Source of the DNA: Octopus sinensis
Lineage: Eukaryota
DNA length: 64,000 nt
Assembly: GCF_006345805.1 (NCBI RefSeq)
Contig: NC_043006.1
Location: forward strand, 46,066,001-46,130,000
Direction of reading: 5' to 3'
The translations under genes and the position numbers were made by a program. Below the pieces are notes generated by a model. That model was not told where the DNA came from. It ran no database searches and saw only the letters and a program-made list of their open reading frames with translations. Shown one piece after another: positions 2,731-54,299 of the stretch. The number at the start of each line of letters is the position of its first letter. Positions within the stretch are counted from its first letter, which is position 1.

Positions 2731-3640
2731 TCTCATATATTTGCCACAAGGGCGAAGAATGAGGGGCACAATACAGAGACAGACATAACGTGTGGGGGTT
2801 TACATATAATAATGAAAAGGTGAAGAGTAAGTATTCACGGTATACACTGAAAAAGAAGGGACATAACCATAGCATACAAAAGTTTAGAAAAAAGGGGGAA
2901 GATGATAGAGATGTGGCCCTCCTGGTACAGGAAAGCCTCTAGGGATAATCGAAGAACCCCACTGTCCGAGACTTTCCTGAAATCACCAGGGGCAAGCGCC
3001 CTCTCCAATTTCTTCTCTCCGACTCACATATCTACACTTAGTGAGGTACAATCCACTCTTGCCATTTTCGCAACTTTCACCCACCTTTCAGTAAACTCAT
3101 TCGAGGACAGCGCTTCCCTCTCCACTCTCAATTTCCTTTTCAAGCGAAACGTGAAGAAGTCAGTGTGAGCTCTACCAAAGACGAATGTATGTCCTCATGC
3201 CTTTCAGCTTTGCTTACCAAACAACCTCTTTCGCCACAGCCACCAGGTAAAGGAAAACTGCCTTGCCTGCTCGATTGAAGGAGGGCGGCGGTGCAATCAC
3301 TGTGGGCTCGGTCGACAGACGGATCCATCCCATACGTGACAGCAGCTGTTCAACATAACCCCACAAGTCAGCAATGCTCGGACACTGAACGAGGGCGGGC
3401 AGAACGGTTTCGTTACTCTGCGTGCAACTCTGACAAGTCCGTCTGACAGCATATTCATGCTTGTAGATTTTATCTCGAACCAGTAGCGCCCCCCCCCCCC
3501 CCCCCCGATAACACTGCCAGGCCAAGGACATCTGGAAATTACCCATGATATTTCTCGACCGGAAAGACCTCCGGAAGAATAGCCGGTTCGTACTCGTCGA
3601 CACCCAGAGTTCCCCCGAAACTTCCTCGCTACTTATCCAC
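2731..3640 (-). mobile_element. 5'-truncated L1/Tx1-clade non-LTR retrotransposon (ORF2 C-terminal zinc-finger region plus 3' UTR), decayed
   Basis: ORF 3214-3603 reads LAWQCY..LLVRDKIYKH..RTCQSCTQSNETVLPALVQCPSIADLW, a CxxC..ET..(H)..C..W zf-RVT pattern typical of L1/Tx1 ORF2; the 3' end abuts a (TAA)n tract. Confidence 0.75.
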
Positions 3641-4529: not shown

Positions 4530-5735
4530 CTGGACTCTAAATGAACTAATCAAAATAGACTGGAAAACAAGAATAATAGGATTTAGGACTTAGGACGCAC
4601 CACCCAAAATCTGACATAGAACGGCGATATATACAACGTATCGAAGGTGGTAGAGGCCTTATACAGCTAGAAAACTATTACACAGTAACCACCATAGGAC
4701 TACATAAATGCCTACTTCAGAAGCAAGGAAAACTAATAATCATAAAACACGAACAAAACAAAAAACTGTTTCCAGTCTTTAAGGAAGCTAACAAACACAA
4801 AAAAGAAGTCATCGTACCTAACAATTATGATGATAAAAGAAAAACAACAAAAGCTGTGAAACAACTGAAATCCAAACTAAAACTGGAACTGCAACGGATG
4901 ATGATAAAACGATAGCAACAAAACAGAAAAGAAATAGACAAAGCAAAAGCCCAACAAATGCTGAGTAGCTCAGGACTTAAAGCAGAGACTGAAGGATTTT
5001 TAATTGCAACTCAAGATCGAAGCCTTCCCATCAGAAATCACCAAAGACATATAATGAAAAGAAATGCAAGTAACTGCAAAATATGTGGTGATGGAGAAGA
5101 AACAATAAATCACATTGTCTCTGGCTGTCCAGTCCTGGCTAAGAAGGAATATATTCAGAGACACAACAGAGTTGGGACCTATATACACTGGAAACTATGC
5201 CAACACTATGGAATAACAACGGAAAAAAGATGGTATAAGTACATGCTAGAAAAGTTCACAGAGAGTGAAAAAGCAACAATACTCTGGCATATGGCAATAC
5301 ACACAGATAGAGAAATTAAACCGGACATAGTTGTCAGAGATCACCAAGAAAAATAATGCTTTCTGATCGATGTATCAATACCAACAGATGACAATGTTTC
5401 TTTAAAAGAAACAGAGAAACTTTCAAAATACAAAGGTCTCAAAATAGAGATAAATCCAATGTCGAGCTTAAAAACAGAAACAATTTCTATCATAGTAGGT
5501 GTGTTAGGTATGATAAAAAAACATTCAGACGAATACATAACAAAAACACCATGACCAACAAGTATATAAAACATACAGAAAATATGCACTATTAGGCACC
5601 GCACACATCCTACGTAAAACAATTTCAATGCAGGGAAAATAAGACCATAACAACGAATCACTACACATATCCAAGTTACATAGAACCGCGCTCGGTAGTG
5701 CAGTGAAAGCTCGTGATAAAAATACGACTACTGAA
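4530..5735 (+). mobile_element. R4/Dong-like RLE non-LTR retrotransposon, 3' portion, decayed
   Basis: CKICGDGEETINHIVSGC zinc knuckle, RHNRV, KPDIVV...LIDVSIP restriction-like endonuclease motifs; flanked by (TAA)/(TGA)n tracts. Confidence 0.88.
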
Positions 5736-5848: not shown

Positions 5849-6646
5849 GTCATGATGAATAGATTACCAGAACGCATACTAAATGGTTCCTCATTCGTGG
5901 ATTATGGATTGCTTGAAGATATTTGGAATTACACACAAAAATGGTGGACTTATTGACCAGAAATATGAATGGATGAACTGCTGAACTGATATCGGAGAGG
6001 CAAAGCTTAGGACTTTGAAAATGTCAAACGTGAAATCTTCCAAGGAGATAACTTGTCATCGTTGCGTTTTGTAATGTGTGTGTGTGTGTGTGATACCGCT
6101 GGTTTTGATATTGGGAAACACGAAAGCTGGGTATGAGTTCAAGAAAAGAAAAGTTAAGATCAATCATTTTCTTTTTATCGGCGACCTGAAACTGTATGGA
6201 AAAGATGAAACGTAGCTGAATTCACTGATGTAGACAGAACATTGCTTTAGCGCGGATATAAGAATGGAATTTGGGCTAAAAGTTGTGGAGTATTGATTGT
6301 AAAGAGAGGTAAAATCCAGCAAGTGGACGTTGTGAAGTAGCCCTTGGGAGAGGTAATGAAGAGAAGAGACAGGGAATGAATCAGATATCTGAGCGTAATA
6401 AAAATGGTGGAAATTGTGGGAAGGCAAATGAAGGAGAGGTTATCTTACGAGTATTGCAGAAGACTGAGATTGATTTTGAAGTCTGAACTGAATGGGAAAA
6501 ATATGTTCCAAGTAATAAGTAAATTCATGGGCAATTGTTCTCTTGAGAAATTGAGCAGCAGTGATACGAGAGCAGAGGAACAGAAAACTTTGGATAAGAG
6601 AAAAAAATAGTCAATAAATGGTGCGTGACACTTGAAATGTGATACC

Positions 6647-6976
6647 TATTTCTTTATTACCCACAAGGGGCTAAACACAGAGGGGACAAACAAGGACAGA
6701 CATAGGTATTAAGTCGATTACATTGACCCCAGTGCGTAACTGGTACTTAATTTATCGACCCCGAAAGGATAAAAGGCAAAGTCGACCTCGGCGGAATTTG
6801 AACTCAGAACGTAATGGCAGGCGAAATACCGCTAAGCATTTCGTCTGACGTGCTAACGGTTCTGCCAGCTCGCCGCCTAGTCGACCTCGGCGGAATTTGA
6901 ACTCAGAACGTAATGGCAGGCGAAATACCGCTAAGCATTTCGTCTGACGTGCTAACGGTTCTGCCAGCTCGCCGCC
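6647..6976 (-). mobile_element. SINE-A1 with duplicated 99-bp head and 15-16 bp TSD
   Basis: TSD (C)TTGAAATGTGATACC at 6631-6646 and 6976-6991; identical repeat 6780-6878 / 6879-6977. Confidence 0.92.
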
Positions 6977-7131
6977 TTGAAATGTGATACCGACAGGTTG
7001 TGCTTTTCGAGGAAGAAATAAGAGCGCTGTTGATAAGTTGTGATGATTATAGTAGACAGAGGAAAACAATATTATTTGGTATATAAAGGATGAAAATGAA
7101 GTATTACTTGCACAAATAAAGAAGGCAGGTA

Positions 7132-8300
7132 CAGGGGTTGGACAAAATAATGGAAACACCTGAAAATTTCAAACAAACTAATTTTAATATGGGGTATGAC
7201 CGCCTTTGGCAGTAATTACAGCTTGAATTCTACGAGGTATGGGCTCGTACAAAGTTTGAATTGTTTCCAAAGGAATTTTTGTCCATTCTTCAGCTAAAAC
7301 AGTCTCCAGTTCTTGTAGTGATGATGATGGAGGATATCGACTCCTTACTTGTTTTTCTAAAAAATGCACCATAAATGTTCAATAATATTGAGATCTGGGG
7401 ACTGTGGTGGCCAGATAAGACGTTCACCTTCACTAGAATGTTCCTTGTTTCCATTCTTTAGCTGTGTAAATTGATGCATTATCATCTTGAAAGATTGCGT
7501 TTCCCTCCGTAAACAGTTCTGCAACCATAGGAGGAATTTGATCAAATAAAATGCTTAAATAGTCTTGACTATTAAGTCTGCCATGAAAGGAAAACATTGG
7601 GCCTGCAGATTTCCAAGATATAGCCCCCCCCCCCCCCCCCACCACAAATCATCACATATATTTCTCGATGATTAACAGTTGGAAGAAAGCAGTCTGGGTC
7701 AAATGCTTCTTTTGGCTGTCTCCACACGCATACTCGGCCAGTGGTCGGAAATAAGGTAAAGGATGACTCTTCCGAGAAAATAACATTCTTCCACTGCTCT
7801 AGGGACCAATTCTGTAGGTTTTTACTCCACTCTAAACGCTTTGCTACGTTTGCTTTTGAAAGTAGTGGTTTTCTGATTGCAGCTCTCCCATGAAATCCGG
7901 CTTTGTGCAGCTCCTGGTATGGAAACTGAGTTCTCGAGATGGTCATTAAGCTGTGCAGTAATTTGGGAGCTGTACTTTTGTGATCCTTTCTAACAATTCG
8001 TGTAAGAATCCGACGCTCCCTATCTGAAAGTTTTGGTTTTCTTCCGGAGTTTTGTTTCGGCGAGGAGATTTTTCCTTCTTTCTCAAAAGATGTCATTACT
8101 TTCGAGACAGTACTTCTTGATATACCAAACATTTCGGCTGTTTTCGTTACGCTAGCGCCTGCCATACGAGTACAAACAATTTGACCTCTTTGAAAGACCG
8201 ATCGCTCTGTCATTTTAATGAATTTTAATTACCTTTTTCTGATGACATCTGAAACGAAACAGCAATTTTTAGCAAAACATATTAACCAACACTAATAATA
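7132..8300 (-). mobile_element. Tc1-family DNA transposon with one TIR retained
   Basis: TA|CAGGGGTTGGACAAAATAATGGAAACACC terminus at 7130-7160; the matching TIR is not found at the other end. Confidence 0.88.
7184..8213 (-). pseudogene. Tc1 (DD34E) transposase pseudogene, frameshifted
   Basis: HTH N-terminus, GRKPKL, VIFSEES, FQDDNAS and WPPQSPDLNIIEHLW motifs spread over four ORF pieces. Confidence 0.92.
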
Positions 8301-11783: not shown

Positions 11784-12760
11784 GGCGGCGAGTAGGCAGA
11801 ATCGTTAGCACGTCGGGCGAATTGCTTAGCGGTATTTCGTCTGCGTTACGTTGTGAGTTCGAATTCCGCCGAGGTCGACTTTGCCTTTCATCCTTTCGGG
11901 GTCGATAAATTAAGCACCAGTTACGCACTGGGGTCGATGTAATCGACTTAATACCTATGTCTGTCCTTGTTTGTCCCCTCTATGTTTAGCCCCTTGTGGG
12001 TAATAAAGAAATAGGTATTTCGTCTGCGTTACGTTCTGAGTTCAAATTCCGCCGAGGTTGACTTTGCCTTTCATCCTTTCAGGGTCGATAAATTAAGTAC
12101 CAGTTACGCACTGGGGTCGATGTAATCGACTTAATACCTATGTCTGTCCTTGTTTGTCCCCTGTATGTTTAGCCCCTTGTGGGTAATAAAGAAATAGGTA
12201 TTTCGTCTGCCGTTACGTTCTGAGTTCAAATTCCGCCGAGGTCAACTTTGCTTTTCATCCTTTCGGGGTCGATAAATTAAGTACCAGTTACGCATTGGGG
12301 TCGATTTAATCGACCTAATCCCTTTTTTCTGTCCTTGTTTGTCCCCTGTATGTTTAGCTCCACGTGAGTAGTAAAGAAATAAGAATAGTTAGCGCGCCGG
12401 TCGAAATGCTTAGCGGTATTTCAGCTGTGTTTACGTTCTGAGTTCAAATTCTGCCGAGGTCGACTTTACTTTTCACCCTTTCAGGGTCGATAAATTAAGT
12501 ACTAGTTGCCTACTAAGGTCGATCTAATCGACTGGCCCCCTCCCCCAAAATTTTTGGCCTTGTGCCTAGAGTAGAAAAGAATCGTTAGCTCGCTGGTCGA
12601 AATTCTTAGCGGTATTTCACCCGTCGCTACGTTATGTGTTCAAATTTCGCCGAGGTCGACTTTGCCTTTCAACCTTTCGGGGTCAATAAATTAAGTACCA
12701 GTGAAACACTTATCCCTCCCCCACAAAATTTCAGGCCTTGTGCCTATAATAGAAAGATTT
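11784..12760 (+). mobile_element. SINE-A head-to-tail array of five units (three A1, two A2-type)
   Basis: Junctions GAAATA|GGTATTTCG (twice), GAAATA|AGAATAGTTAGC and AAAAGAAT|CGTTAGC. Confidence 0.92.
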
Positions 12761-25038: not shown

Positions 25039-25452
25039 AGGCAGCGAGCTGGGAGAAACGTTAGCACGCCGGGCGAAATGCGTAGCCGTATTTCGTCTGC
25101 CGTTACGTTCTGAGTTCAAATTCCGCCGAGGTCGACTTTGCCTTTCATCCTTTCGGGGTCGATTAAATAAGTACCAGTTACGTACTGGAGTCGATATAAT
25201 CGACTTAATCCGTTTATATGTCCTTGTTTGTCCCCTCTGTGTGTAGCCCCTTGTGGGCAGTAAAGAAATAGGTATTTCGTCTGCCGCTACGTTCTGAGTT
25301 CAAATTCCGCCGAGGTTGACTTTGTCTTTCATCCTTTCGGAGTTGATTAAATAAGTACCAGCTACGCACCGGGGTCAATATAATCGACTTAGTCCGTTTG
25401 TCTGTCCTTGTTTGTCCCCTCTATGTTTAGCCCCTTGCGGGCAATAAAGAAT
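25039..25452 (+). mobile_element. SINE-A1 dimer
   Basis: GAAATA|GGTATTTCG junction at ~25270. Confidence 0.92.
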
Positions 25453-27235: not shown

Positions 27236-27840
27236 TAGGCGTATGGTAAGTGGCTGTATGGTAAGTAGCTTGCTTACCAACCACATGGTTCCGGGTTCAG
27301 TCCCACTGCGTGACACCTTGGACAAGTGTCTTCTACTATAGCCGCGGGCCGACCAAAGCATTGTGAGTGGATTTGGTAGACGGAAACTGAAAGAAGCCCG
27401 TCGTATATATGTATATGTGTGCGTGTTTGTGTGTCTGTGTTTGTCACCCCAACATCGCTTGATAATAGGAGTGGCTGTGTGGTAAGTAGCTTGCTTACCA
27501 ACCACATGGTTCCGGGTTCAGTCCCACTGCGTGACACCTTGGACAAGTGTCTTCTACTATAGCCGCGGGCCGACCAAAGCATTGTGAGTGGATTTGGTAG
27601 ACGGAAACTGAAAGAAGCCCGTCGTATATATGTGTATGTGTGCGTGTTTGTGTGTCTGTGTTTGTCACCCCAACATCGCTTGATAAACGATGCTGGTGTG
27701 TTTACGTCGCCCGTAACTTAGCAGTTCGGCAAAAGAGACCGATAGAATAAGTACTAGGCTTACAAAGAATAAATCCTCGACTAAAGGCGGTGCTGTAGCA
27801 TGGCCGCAGTCAAATAACTGAAACAAGTAAAAGAGTAAAG
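27236..27840 (+). mobile_element. SINE-B with tandem duplication of its 5' ~225 bp
   Basis: Both halves share private variants (TAGCCGCGGGCC, GCTTGATA). Confidence 0.9.
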
Positions 27841-30329: not shown

Positions 30330-31078
30330 TTTTTTTCTGCACTAGACAAAAAGCCCGAAATTTTGGGGAGGGGGCCAGTTGATTAGATCAACCACAGTAC
30401 TCAACTGATACTTAATTTATCGACCTCGAAAGGATGAAAGACAAAGTCGACCTTGGCGGAATTTGAACTCAGAACGTAAAGACAGACGAAATACTTTTCG
30501 CCCGGCGTACTAATGTTTCTTATTTCTCTATTGCCCACAAGGGGCTAAACATAGAGGGTACAAACAAGGACAGACAAACAGATTAAGTCGATTACATTGA
30601 CCCCAGTGCGTAACTGGTATTTATTTAATCGATCCCGAAACGATGAAAGGCTAAGTCGAACTCGGCGGAATTTGAACTCAGAACGTAAAGACAGACGAAA
30701 TACCTATTTCTTTACTACCCACAAGGGGCTAAACATAGAGGGGACAAGCAAGGACAGACAAAGGGATTAAGTCGATTACATCGAGCCCAGTACGTAACTG
30801 GTACTTAATTTATCGACCCCGAAAGTATGAAAGGCAAAGTCGACCTCGGCAGAATTTGAACTCAGAACGTAACGGCAGATGAAATACCGCTAAGCAATTC
30901 GCCCGGCGTGCTAACGTTTCTGCCAGATTGCCAACTTATATACTGCGTTATATTCTTTTCTACTGTAGGCACAAGTCCCGAAATTTTTGGGGAGGTGTCC
31001 AATCGATTAGATCGACCTACAGTACACAACTGGTACTTAATTTATCAACCCCGAAAGGATGAAAGGCAAAGTTGACCT
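30330..31078 (-). mobile_element. SINE-A trimer plus partial fourth copy
   Basis: Junctions GAAATA|GGTATTTCG and GAAATA|AGAAACATTAG. Confidence 0.9.
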
Positions 31079-36399: not shown

Positions 36400-37929
36400 C
36401 TGTCAGGTTCTTTTGCTGAAATGCTAAGTTGCTGGGACTTAAATGCACCAACACCGGTTGTCAAGAGGTGGGGTCAGTGGTGAAGATGAAGACAGATACA
36501 AAATACACACGCGCATATAAGACAGGCTTCTTTCAATTTTCGTCAGCCAAATCCACTCATAAGGTTTTGGTCGCCTCGAGGCTATTGTAGAAGACACTGG
36601 TACGTACTTTATCGACCCCAAAAGGATAAAAGATAAAGTCGGACTCGGCGAATTTTGAACTCAGAACGTAAAGACGGGCGAAATGCCGCTGGGCATTTTA
36701 CACAGTGTGCTAATGAATCTGCTAGCTCACTGCCTTTAATAATAATAATCCTTTCTACTAAAGGCACAAGGCCTGAAATTTGGAGTGGGGGATAGTCGAT
36801 TAGATCGACCCCAGTGTTTCACTGGTACTTAATTTATCAACCTCGGTGGAGTTTGAACTTAAAATGCTAAACATTTCGTCCACCATGATACCGACTTTGC
36901 CAGCTCACCGCCTTAATATTCTTTTCTACTCTTGGCACAAGGCTCAAACTTTTGAGGGAGAGGGCCCAATCGATTAGATCTACCCCAGTACGAAACTGGT
37001 GCTTAATTTATTGACTCCGAAAGGATGAAAGGCAACGTCGACCTCGGCGGAATTTGAATTCAGAACGTAAAGACAGACGAAATACTGCTAAGCGTTTCTC
37101 CAGGCATACTAACGTTTCTGCCCGCTCGCCATCTTTCACCGCCTTCCACTGCCTTAATATTCTTTTCTAATCTAGGCACAAGACCCAAAATCTTTGGGGA
37201 GTGGGGCCAGTCAATTAGATCAACCCCAGTACGCAACTGGTACTTAATTTATTGACCCCGAAAGGGTGAAAGGCAAAGTCGACCTCGGCGGAATTTGGAT
37301 TCAGAACGTAGCGGCAGACGAAATACCTATTTCTTTACTACCCACAAGGGGCTAAACACAGAGGGGACAAACAAGGACAGACAAACGGATTAAGTCGATT
37401 ACATCGACCCCAGTGCGTAACTAGTACTTAATTTATCGACCCCGAAAGGATGAAAGGCAAAGTCGACCTCGGCGGAATTTGAACTGAGAACGTAGCGGCA
37501 GACGAAATACCTATTTCTTTACTACCCACAAGGGGCTAAACACAGAGGGGACAAACAAGGACAGACAAACGGATTAAGTCGATTACATCGACCCCAGTGT
37601 GTAACTGGTACTTAATTTATCGACCCCGAAAGGATGAAAGGCAAAGTCGACCTCGGCGGAATTTGAACTGAGAACGTAGCGGCAGACGAAATACCTATTT
37701 CTTTACTACCCACAAGGGATTAAACACGTAGAGGACAAACAAGGACAGACAAACGGATTAAGTCGATTACATTGACCCCAGTGCGTAACTGGTATTTAAT
37801 TTATCGACCCCGAAAGGATGAAAGGCAAAGTCGACTTCGTCGACGGAATTTGAGCTCAGAATGTAACGGCAGACGAAATACGGCTACGCATTTCGCCCGG
37901 CGTGCTAACGTTTCTCCCAGCTCGCCGCC
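36400..37929 (-). mobile_element. SINE cluster: old SINE-B part, three SINE-A copies, then a four-unit SINE-A array with 184-bp period
   Basis: Unit boundaries at 37328, 37512 and 37696. Confidence 0.92.
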
Positions 37930-45978: not shown

Positions 45979-46210
45979 TTATTTCTTTATTGCCCACAAG
46001 GGGCTAAACATAGATGGGACAAACAAGGACAGACAAAGGTATTAAGTCGATTACATCGACCCCAGTGCGTAACCGGTACTTATTTAATCGACCCTGAAAG
46101 GATGAAAGGCAAAGTCGACCTCTGCCGAATTTGAACTCAGAACGTAACGGCAGACGAAATACAGCTAAGCATTTCGCCCGGCGTGCTAACGTTTCTGCCA
46201 GCTTGCCGCC
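45979..46210 (-). mobile_element. SINE-A1 monomer
   Basis: Complete match; TSD about AAACGTTA. Confidence 0.92.
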
Positions 46211-52232: not shown

Positions 52233-53050
52233 GATAGATATATATAGTTATTCATTCACTATCTTCGGTGAACGATGATCATAATCTTATCATATTCTTC
52301 TTTTCATGACTATTGCTATGTTCTCTCTCTAATGTAATACTTGACCAAATTAAATACACTTAATTTTATGGAAAAATCACTGGAGTTTCACTACATTTTG
52401 AAATATTATAATAGAAAATTGATCAGGTCAAAGAACACTTACCATAAAACATGCGTGTTCGAAAGCTGGAGAGTAATACTTAGATCCAACTGCCAACCAG
52501 TATATTTCCCTATTTCTGGGACAAATCTACTTCTTTAAACCTCGTCAAAATAGTTCCAATAGAAAAAAAATCTCGAGTCAAGAAATTATCAAATTGGAAA
52601 AGAGTGTAATCCGGAATTGTCTCAAAAATGTGTGTGCTTGGGTATATGTGTGTGTGTGTGTGTGTGTGTTGGAAAGGAAATTTATCTTAAAAGTTCTAAA
52701 AACGGTATGTAGTCATGAAAACTTTCAGAAACTTGGAGCCATTGAGTAATAATTTGGTCAAACTGGAAGGGAAGTAGCACCTGATATCGTCATTAAATTA
52801 ATATATCCCTATTATTTAAGAAAAGCAGTTAGCATTATTTTACTCTTCCCAACGATCCAAATATGCCACCCACATTTTACATTGATCATTCTCCTCAGCT
52901 ACTAAATTGTCTCTCCTGCACCACCATACGTAACTTCCTCTCCTCATTCACTACCTCTGACCAGCACTCAAACAACATTCTCAACAACAATTTCATATCT
53001 GTCTGTCTCTGTCTGTCTGTCTGTCTCTCTTTCCGCTTTTCTCCTCTCAT

Positions 53051-53490
53051 GGCACAATCGTTACCACGCTGGGGAAATGCTTAGCGGTATTTCGGCGGCG
53101 AGCTGGCAGAAATGTTAGCACGTCGGGCGAAATGCCTAGAGGTATTTCGTCTGCCGTTACGTTGTGAGTTCAAAATTCCGCCGAGGTCGACTTTGCCTTT
53201 CATCCTTTTGGGGTCGATAAATTAAGTACCAGTTACGCACTGGGGTCAATGTAATCGACTTAATACCTATGTCTGTCTTTGTTTGTCCCCTCTATGTTTA
53301 GCCCCTTGTGGGTAATAAAGAAATAGGTATTTCGCCCGTCTTTACGTTCTGAGTTAAAATACCACCGAGGTCGGCTTTGACGTTTGTCGTTTCGAGGTCG
53401 ATGGAATAAGTTCCAGTTGATTACTGGGGCGATGTAATCGACTGACCCCTCACCCAAAACTGCTGATCTTGTATTAAAATTTGAAATTCA
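53051..53490 (+). mobile_element. Old SINE-A containing a full-length SINE-A1 (53094-53325) with TSD
   Basis: GGTATTTC(G) at 53086-53093 and 53326-53333. Confidence 0.93.
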
Positions 53491-53564: not shown

Positions 53565-54299
53565 TACTCTTTTACTCTTTTACTTGTTTCAGTCATTTGA
53601 CTGCGGCCATGCTGGAGCACCACCTTTAATCGAGCAACTCGACCCCGGGACTTATTCTTTGTAAGCCCAGTACTTATTCTATCGGTCTCTTTTTGCCGAA
53701 CCGCTAAGTGACGGGGACATAAACACACCAGCATCGGTTGTCAAGTAATGCTAGGGGGAGATACACAGACACGCAAACACACAGACATACATATATATAT
53801 ATATATATATATACATATATACGACGGGCTTCTTTCAGTTTCCGTCTACCAAACCCCCACTCACAATGCTTTGGTCGGCCCGAGGCTATAGTAGAAGACA
53901 CTTGTGCCCAAGGTACCACGCAGTGGGACTGAACCCGGAACCATGTGGTTGGTAAACAAGCTACTTACCACACATCCACTCCTGCGCCTATATATATACA
54001 TATCATATATACATATCATAAAAACAAATTCGCACTGTTGCAAATGTATATACATATATACGACAGGCTTCTTTCAGTTTCCGTCTACCAAACCCCCACT
54101 CACAATGCTTTGGTCGGCCCGAGGCTATAGTAGAAGACACTTGTGCCCAAGGTACCACGCAGTGGGACTGAACCCGGAACCATGTGGTTGGTAAACAAGC
54201 TACTTACCACACATCCACTCCTGCGCCTATATATATACATATCATATATACATATCATAAAAACAAATTCGCACTGTTGCAAATGTATATACATATATA
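53565..54299 (-). mobile_element. SINE-B plus a 239-bp tandem duplication of its 5' half and flank
   Basis: 53811-54060 is nearly identical to 54050-54299. Confidence 0.9.

Follow-up and report, generated by a model that had tools for sequence, protein, structure and literature searches.

Among described retroposons, the SINEU/Tx1-Mar system is one of those closest to the octopus element treated here: a Tx1 LINE moves a SINE, the target lies within another repeat, and two preferred positions as well as tandem copies around a duplication are reported (PMC4494074). In that system SINE and LINE share their target, which is a foreign DNA transposon (PMC4494074). A further point of reference is R2, which possesses a sequence-specific nuclease and a fixed site in the rDNA. 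In R2Ol, the RNA carries downstream target sequence that anneals to the target, which makes the reaction both more accurate and more efficient, four nucleotides of read-through target fixing the start of reverse transcription (PMC6795142). The step from a SINE to an array is ascribed to recombination in the work cited here (PMC10702118, PMC11481361). Active L1-Tx1 families have been listed in an octopus (PMC13282606), and the accessible text of that account makes no mention of SINE arrays such as those described below.

The window analysed is a stretch of 64,000 nucleotides from Octopus sinensis (NC_043006.1, positions 46,066,001 to 46,130,000). It is rich in a single group of SINEs, A1, A2 and A3, which have the same head and body but differ in the tail and the consensus sequences of which were derived from 93, 7 and 8 copies, respectively. 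The SINE is also abundant in three further organisms. The A1 consensus comprises 231 bp and GGTATTTC begins at its position 48, which gives the unit of 184 bp found by the tandem repeat search. The element is short, non-coding and abundant (93,741 exact tails genome-wide), and duplications of variable length (7-26 nt) were detectable at 43 of 132 tails in non-self DNA, which places it among the SINE2 elements; the 3' tail that it shares with a partner LINE is consistent with this class. Box-like motifs occupy consensus positions 11-21 and 72-86, as judged by the general A-box and B-box consensus; ARAGORN called no tRNA in the SINE head (0), and Rfam returned neither a tRNA nor a family. The SINE may resemble the MetaSINE superfamily. 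The mark of this superfamily is a 66-bp Meta domain (PMC4824008).

Several features of the family and its surroundings stand apart from the insertion events discussed below. A common A1 variant has GCGTAGCCGTATTTC at consensus 43-48 and has thereby lost the GGTA of its own head, which might confer immunity to insertion at position 48. Furthermore, tandem duplications of some 23-99 bp from the 5' part of the head occur at 5' junctions, sometimes many times over, which suggests restarts of reverse transcription and head-only minisatellites. The window also harbours a second SINE-like family in near-perfect tandem pairs of 221 bp and 239 bp (27249-27686 and 53808-54299) and a Tc1/mariner transposase fragment (Pfam HTH_Tnp_Tc3_2; 7572-8228, minus strand).

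At the focal locus, GGTATTTC occurs twice and brackets a full element (Table 1), a 232-bp SINE that terminates in AAAGAAATA and is identical to the A1 consensus at 220 of 231 positions (95.2%). Removal of 53094-53333 rejoins the host halves with no gap at the junction, and the rejoined host matches the A3 consensus (8 copies) at 165 of 197 positions (83.8%) over 53050-53486. The structure is as described in the sequence-only reading, a young SINE flanked by target-site duplications within an older relative. Since the duplicated GGTATTTC equals the consensus sequence, it carries by itself no locus-specific base, and evidence of this kind is supplied by recurrence throughout the genome. Four consecutive T's at window 53206-53209 are private to the insert; they would stop Pol III and make it an unlikely source copy. 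In four public runs compared with the locus in search of an empty allele, repeat copies swamp the signal and no spanning piece was present.

Table 1. Coordinates of the SINE, array and LINE features (window positions unless a contig is given)
Feature	Position	Strand	Remark
Old host SINE (A3 type), 5' head	53050..53085	+	consensus 11-47, ends TTAGC
Target-site duplication, upstream copy	53086..53093	+	GGTATTTC, consensus 48-55
Young full-length A1 SINE	53094..53325	+	T-tailed youngest sub-lineage, 95.2% to consensus
A-box-like motif of insert (Pol III promoter)	53104..53114	+	by likeness to the A-box consensus
Target word, new copy within insert	53141..53148	+	
B-box-like motif of insert	53165..53180	+	by likeness to the B-box consensus
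AATACCTAT	53262..53270	+	exact reverse complement of tail end and flank (53323-53331)
LINE-derived tail of insert	53283..53325	+	88-91% over 43-44 nt to Tx1-like LINE 3' end
Target-site duplication, downstream copy	53326..53333	+	
Rest of old host	53334..53486	+	A3-type tail
A1 copy in unique DNA	6632..6991	-	15-bp duplication from GGTAT and 99-bp 5' duplication
C-tailed A1 copy in unique DNA	45980..46210	-	duplication TAACGTTT, without GGTA
Seamless array	11784..12533	+	full unit, two 184-bp units, then position-15-start unit
Seamless array	25040..25451	+	two units
Seamless array	30377..30932	-	last unit a position-15 unit
Seamless array	37209..37929	-	3.6 units of 184 bp
Multi-tail arrays	G000:C1:30020862-30022556; C1:8970289-8971807		
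5' head duplication	6879-6976	-	
5' head duplications	G000:C1:195358953-195359251; C10381:37343-37973		
Fragment of partner LINE relative	3217..3639	-	45% identity over 122 aa to partner ORF2
Tandem LINEs	L165 (G000:C6:112825000-112834900), L167; G000:C3:72.50-72.52 Mb; C9:76.61-76.62 Mb		

A scan of 2.72 Gb of genome for the nested pattern yielded 17 matches when a gap of 0-8 nt was allowed and 125 with a gap of 0-22 nt, the reversed-pattern control giving 0 in either case; 18 of the first 100 listed matches of the wider search form five tandem-head clusters and are not nested. Among 20 inspected candidates (15 of the 17 narrow-gap matches and 5 from other loci), 19 show an exact duplication of 8-16 nt, the start of which is always GGTAT while the end is variable. 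A fixed first cut combined with a variable second cut is the signature of target-primed reverse transcription (TPRT). In 13 of the 20 the duplication contains bases that differ from the A1 consensus; some of these may be variants of the host subfamily, or may agree with added A's by chance. The hosts are older than the inserts (median 10.1% vs 1.4%). At 20 further loci of the wider search, the first tail is followed by host-like GGT sequence in 16 and a clear duplication of at least 10 nt was recognised by eye in 11. In about 100 places, then, the SINE is found at the same base of an older copy and is flanked by true target duplications, and both the recurrence of the flanked configuration and the fixed insertion base are thereby upheld.

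Specificity for this base is, however, weaker than was proposed. GGTATTTCG follows 23,627 of 93,741 exact tails (25%), and in 57 unselected tails the next sequence is position 48 in 24, position 15 in 2, another self position in 2 and other DNA in 29. Position-48 targeting is a preference; strict site specificity, as claimed at the outset, is contradicted by the 29 tails in non-self DNA as well as by the second self site at position 15, and the distribution departs from that of sequence-specific retroposons of the R2 or Keno type, nearly all copies of which occupy one target. Duplications in non-self DNA start in accordance with [G/A/T][G/A][T/A]A, and the commonest base before the cut is C (19 of 43), both self sites following GC. 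The target lies between the A-box-like and B-box-like motifs of the SINE head, just as first described. The complementarity noted between GAAATA and TATTTC likewise holds as sequence, the one being the reverse complement of the other, but fails as a targeting step: in the geometry of TPRT the priming strand needs an RNA that is identical to the downstream top strand, and the LINE, which ends in AAAGAAAT as does the SINE, goes to other sites. Visible nesting accounts for an estimated 0.5% or so of junctions and about 1% of GGTA-site events, and in 200 kb of evenly spaced DNA SINE heads provide 5 of 1,029 GGTA sites (0.5%) and 5 of 282 GGTAT sites (1.8%). The share of visible nesting is thus no higher than that of the heads among such sites, which counts against a flank guide, and any self-targeting beyond motif abundance rests on the seamless class.

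A stronger result than site specificity is that the target word tracks the SINE sub-lineage. A single tail base divides the family into 72,574 T-tails and 21,167 C-tails. The former are followed by GGTA in 44,270 cases (61.0%) and by AGAA in 1,330 (1.8%), the latter by GGTA in 2,873 (13.6%) and by AGAA in 7,283 (34.4%), totals that include array junctions, in which the word is possibly inherited passively. The T-tailed lineage favours GGTA, in unique DNA as well as at position 48 of the head, and the C-tailed lineage favours AG(AA) and head position 15. In non-self DNA, with 15 tails picked for AGAA and tails within LINE loci left out, a GG start is found in 21 of 47 T-tails vs 1 of 46 C-tails (p=8e-7) and an AG start in 4 of 47 vs 14 of 46 (p=0.009), while GGTA, with a background of 0.26% per site, begins 12 of 22 verified duplications of T-tails vs 1 of 17 of C-tails (p=0.002). 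At such non-self sites, inheritance within arrays offers no explanation of the link. A TATA start is frequent in both lineages (13 of 46 C, 9 of 47 T), and exact AGAA follows only 4 of 46 unselected C-tails. The site-15 pattern has 54 matches genome-wide, 20 of which were fetched, and 5 of these are truly nested (four C-tailed copies and one A1+A2 composite). Nested insertions, as read from the listed matches, divide into 15 T and 1 C at site 48 and 0 T and 4 C at site 15 (p=0.001). Moreover, nearest relatives share their start class at 0.44 vs 0.24 when shuffled. The C-tailed lineage is slightly the older of the two (median 5.0% vs 3.6-4.3%), so that successive LINE enzymes could explain the two words.

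The putative partner was sought among 30 LINE loci from a zf-RVT search, the best 9 of which match SINE positions 189-231 at 88-91% over 43-44 nt. The earlier statement that the tail is common to a Tx1-like LINE thus holds for this 43-nt stretch; when a LINE carrying the SINE tail in full was sought, 9 copies were found, of a family that shares only the 5' part of the tail. The partner is about 5.1-5.5 kb long, with duplications of 17-20 nt, and Pfam identifies a zinc knuckle in ORF1 and APE, RT and zinc finger domains in ORF2, for which the nearest solved structure is human L1 ORF2p (E 2e-68, vs 2e-24 for R2). Judged by its sequence, this architecture of two ORFs with their domains and affinity to the L1 group agrees with the Tx1 clade. 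We take the LINE to be Tx1-like; a named Tx1 reference was absent among 20 hits. In its closest family AGGTA follows 0 of 15 exact-tail copies, and consequently the LINE neither occupies the same site as the SINE, a possibility raised at the outset, nor shares a target with it in the manner of SINEU and Tx1-Mar. All sampled LINE tails of this shape have the T form. A young LINE clade, compared over an 800-bp stretch and at its targets, includes six copies within about 1.5% that have three flanks, sisters sharing one; three of its copies lie on different chromosomes at one point of one repeat, with verified duplications. A LINE of another family (L171) has a duplication that begins GGTAG, which counts against a flank guide.

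Other observations on LINEs are set down here in their own right. Tx1-like LINEs occur in tandem at a spacing of about 3.6-5.7 kb, and at L165 and L167 the post-tail sequence reappears where an element begins at its 5' junction, which looks as though the LINE were targeting its own 5' region as well. Other LINE lineages terminate at other repeats (L118 3' end; L161 3' end; L160, L162 and L168). These are a stretch that may resemble the start of U1 snRNA, another that may resemble a hammerhead and, on three chromosomes, the same site of a common repeat. A zf-RVT fragment at window 4916-5353 (plus strand) was rejected as a partner, belonging to a different LINE family.

The seamless 184-bp arrays appear to be of mixed origin, comprising in-place insertion, composite copying and local duplication. 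In 46 arrays that were not picked for likeness to the query, the divergence of the head follows that of the unit downstream (rho 0.34, p=0.02) but shows no relation to that of its own unit (-0.02). The ages of the two units are uncorrelated (rho 0.01), the first being the younger (3.8% vs 6.9%, p=0.001), and in a comparison set of 49 monomers the head tracks the body (0.30). Heads before old-type (GTCCGTC-type) units carry T at position 19 in 61 of 182 cases vs 6 of 49 monomers, the link of this base to GTCCGTC-type hosts having been seen by eye, and the young head base is present in 121 of the 182 arrays with an old-type second unit. This suggests, by our own estimate, that about a quarter of old-type arrays carry host heads; by extrapolation, in-place formation of a quarter of the junctions would mean that self-insertions make up about a tenth of all insertions. 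A in 24 of 28 unlike arrays at head base 19 was discarded as proof of composites, because 1,032 of 1,911 A2 monomers also have A, and the conditioned test of this base in old-type arrays and monomers gave a mixture. Among 127 seamless pairs tested for a hidden duplication, a front-loaded signal was absent for unlike pairs, rare host variants being shared at 48-71 in 7 of 87 (not significant). Adjacent A1 units share rare variants over their whole length (12-27% vs 2-4% shuffled), a sign of local duplication or conversion. At L269 a duplication flanks a whole A1+A2 composite, in unique DNA duplications flank whole dimers, and 4 of 9 composite arrays have an outer duplication, a number too small for dating. 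The proposed derivation of the arrays from self-insertion is supported for part of them, beside the signs of local duplication or conversion and of composites moved whole. In seamless arrays the head stays joined to the B box; promoter inactivation and a safe harbour, the benefits originally attributed to self-insertion, are not supported. Two multi-tail arrays (Table 1) have at least 9 and at least 7 tails, at a spacing of about 185 bp or double this value.

The reading we favour, to which we assign a probability of about 0.55, is flank-guided priming, in which the read-through RNA of the SINE, carrying the 3' flank of its source copy, guides a Tx1-like LINE enzyme. Pol III would read through the tail, as is expected from the absence of four consecutive T's from every A1, A2 and A3 consensus. 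The LINE enzyme would nick loosely, giving rise to the observed pattern of C before the cut and a [G/A/T][G/A][T/A]A start, and pairing between the nicked DNA and the flank that the RNA carries would select among nicks. The predicted flank is GGUAUUUC for T-tails and AGAAACG for C-tails; sources followed by GGTATTTC would lead to GGTA sites and those followed by AGAAACG to AG sites, in keeping with the lineage link. SINE heads would offer the longest match, with insertion at 48 or 15 as the outcome; an unlike join would leave a visible duplication, as at the focal locus, and pairing of cDNA and host would produce a seamless 184-bp unit. Every product would become a new source with the same flank, and once a source had landed in its own head, self-targeting itself would be inherited. 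Arrays would additionally spread as composites and lengthen via local duplication. The near-identical LINEs with different flanks would parallel the inheritance of words in the SINE. In favour, too, the youngest SINE sub-lineage, including the focal copy, carries AATACCTAT, a 9-mer which is complementary to the tail end and GGTATT and occurs in 29 of the matched copies with a TAA tail. On the other side, seven of the nine bases were present before the sub-lineage arose, and the 9-mer is paired in the predicted fold of the RNA, a helix that could hide the guide. A wider version is more tentative and falls somewhat short of even odds: a heritable RNA guide derived from the 3' flank of the source would direct one loose enzyme, separately in each of many lineages, SINE self-targeting would have arisen at least twice (48 and 15), and at least a tenth of insertions would go invisibly into older copies, with arrays forming via retroposition.

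The main rival, which we regard as possible though distinctly less probable than guidance by the flank, places specificity in the endonuclease: separate Tx1-like LINE lineages, each with its own word, would have mobilised the T- and C-tailed SINEs, and the head would be targeted only because it contains both words. This corresponds to the standard view for Tx1 (PMC4494074), and it accommodates the several LINE lineages with different targets in the genome, the C before the cut (19 of 43) with both self sites after GC, the slight age difference between T and C lineages and visible nesting that is no commoner than motif abundance predicts. Yet a GGTA-targeting LINE was not found in the closest family (0 of 15), the sampled LINE tails of this shape are all of the T form, and near-identical LINE copies use different long targets.

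Less probable still is a history in which composite source genes arose from a small number of early nested insertions, the arrays then being copied whole or expanded by unequal recombination and self-insertion remaining a rare accident. The variants common to adjacent A1 units (12-27% vs 2-4% shuffled), the duplications around the L269 composite and around whole dimers in unique DNA, the young head in two thirds of old-type arrays and the published account of SINE satellites by recombination (PMC10702118) would all suit such a history, which does not account for roughly 100 nested duplications that arose independently at a single base, for the word preference in unique DNA or for heads that age with the downstream unit while unit ages are uncorrelated (rho 0.01). 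That the focal structure is a tandem duplication or an assembly artefact has been largely refuted and is very improbable. Its 8-bp duplication is the same as the consensus, and 15 of the 20 matches fetched for site 15, as well as at least one of 20 for site 48, are not nested, many of these being 5' head duplications; against this, insert and host differ in subfamily and age, the host rejoins without a gap, and private bases are duplicated at other loci.

Taken together, self-insertion is real and recurrent, strict specificity was over-read, and the lineage-linked word is the more interesting result. If true, the flank guide would help to explain the tens of thousands of head-to-tail repeats of this SINE, and the nested copies constitute countable intermediates between a dispersed SINE and nucleosome-sized tandem arrays. 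The T and C lineages provide a natural test of what determines the target of Tx1-type elements, the RNA flank or the endonuclease. Should it be the flank, a LINE enzyme of the APE type could be re-aimed via RNA alone, which would bear on tools for RNA-templated gene insertion. For annotation, independent self-insertions are overstated by counts of junctions and understated by visible duplications.

Each ingredient of a self-targeting SINE system has a precedent, and a description of such a SINE was not found in the literature, a prior one being possible in Repbase, subscription papers or supplements. Unlike SINEU, the octopus SINE has its own head as target, and the word splits by sub-lineage; unlike in R2, selection of a site from a set of loose nicks would fall to the flank, which would be inherited. 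In RTE-related SINEs the first bases of the duplication correlate with the 3' end of the RNA, as here, but the guide is the element's own microsatellite tail (PMC6007223), whereas in the octopus it would lie outside the element. The SINE satellites of squamates (PMC10702118) and the TSD-(SINE)n-TSD structures of bivalves (PMC11481361) resemble the octopus arrays in their full terminal and identically truncated units and in a unit length in or near the 150-180-bp range; for these, unequal recombination is invoked, and the available text of both accounts reports neither nested intermediates nor a target word. Finally, the Zepp LINE of green algae likewise forms nested clusters of one element, though it is autonomous and builds one cluster per chromosome (PMC3446292), whereas the octopus SINE is dispersed in tens of thousands of short arrays.
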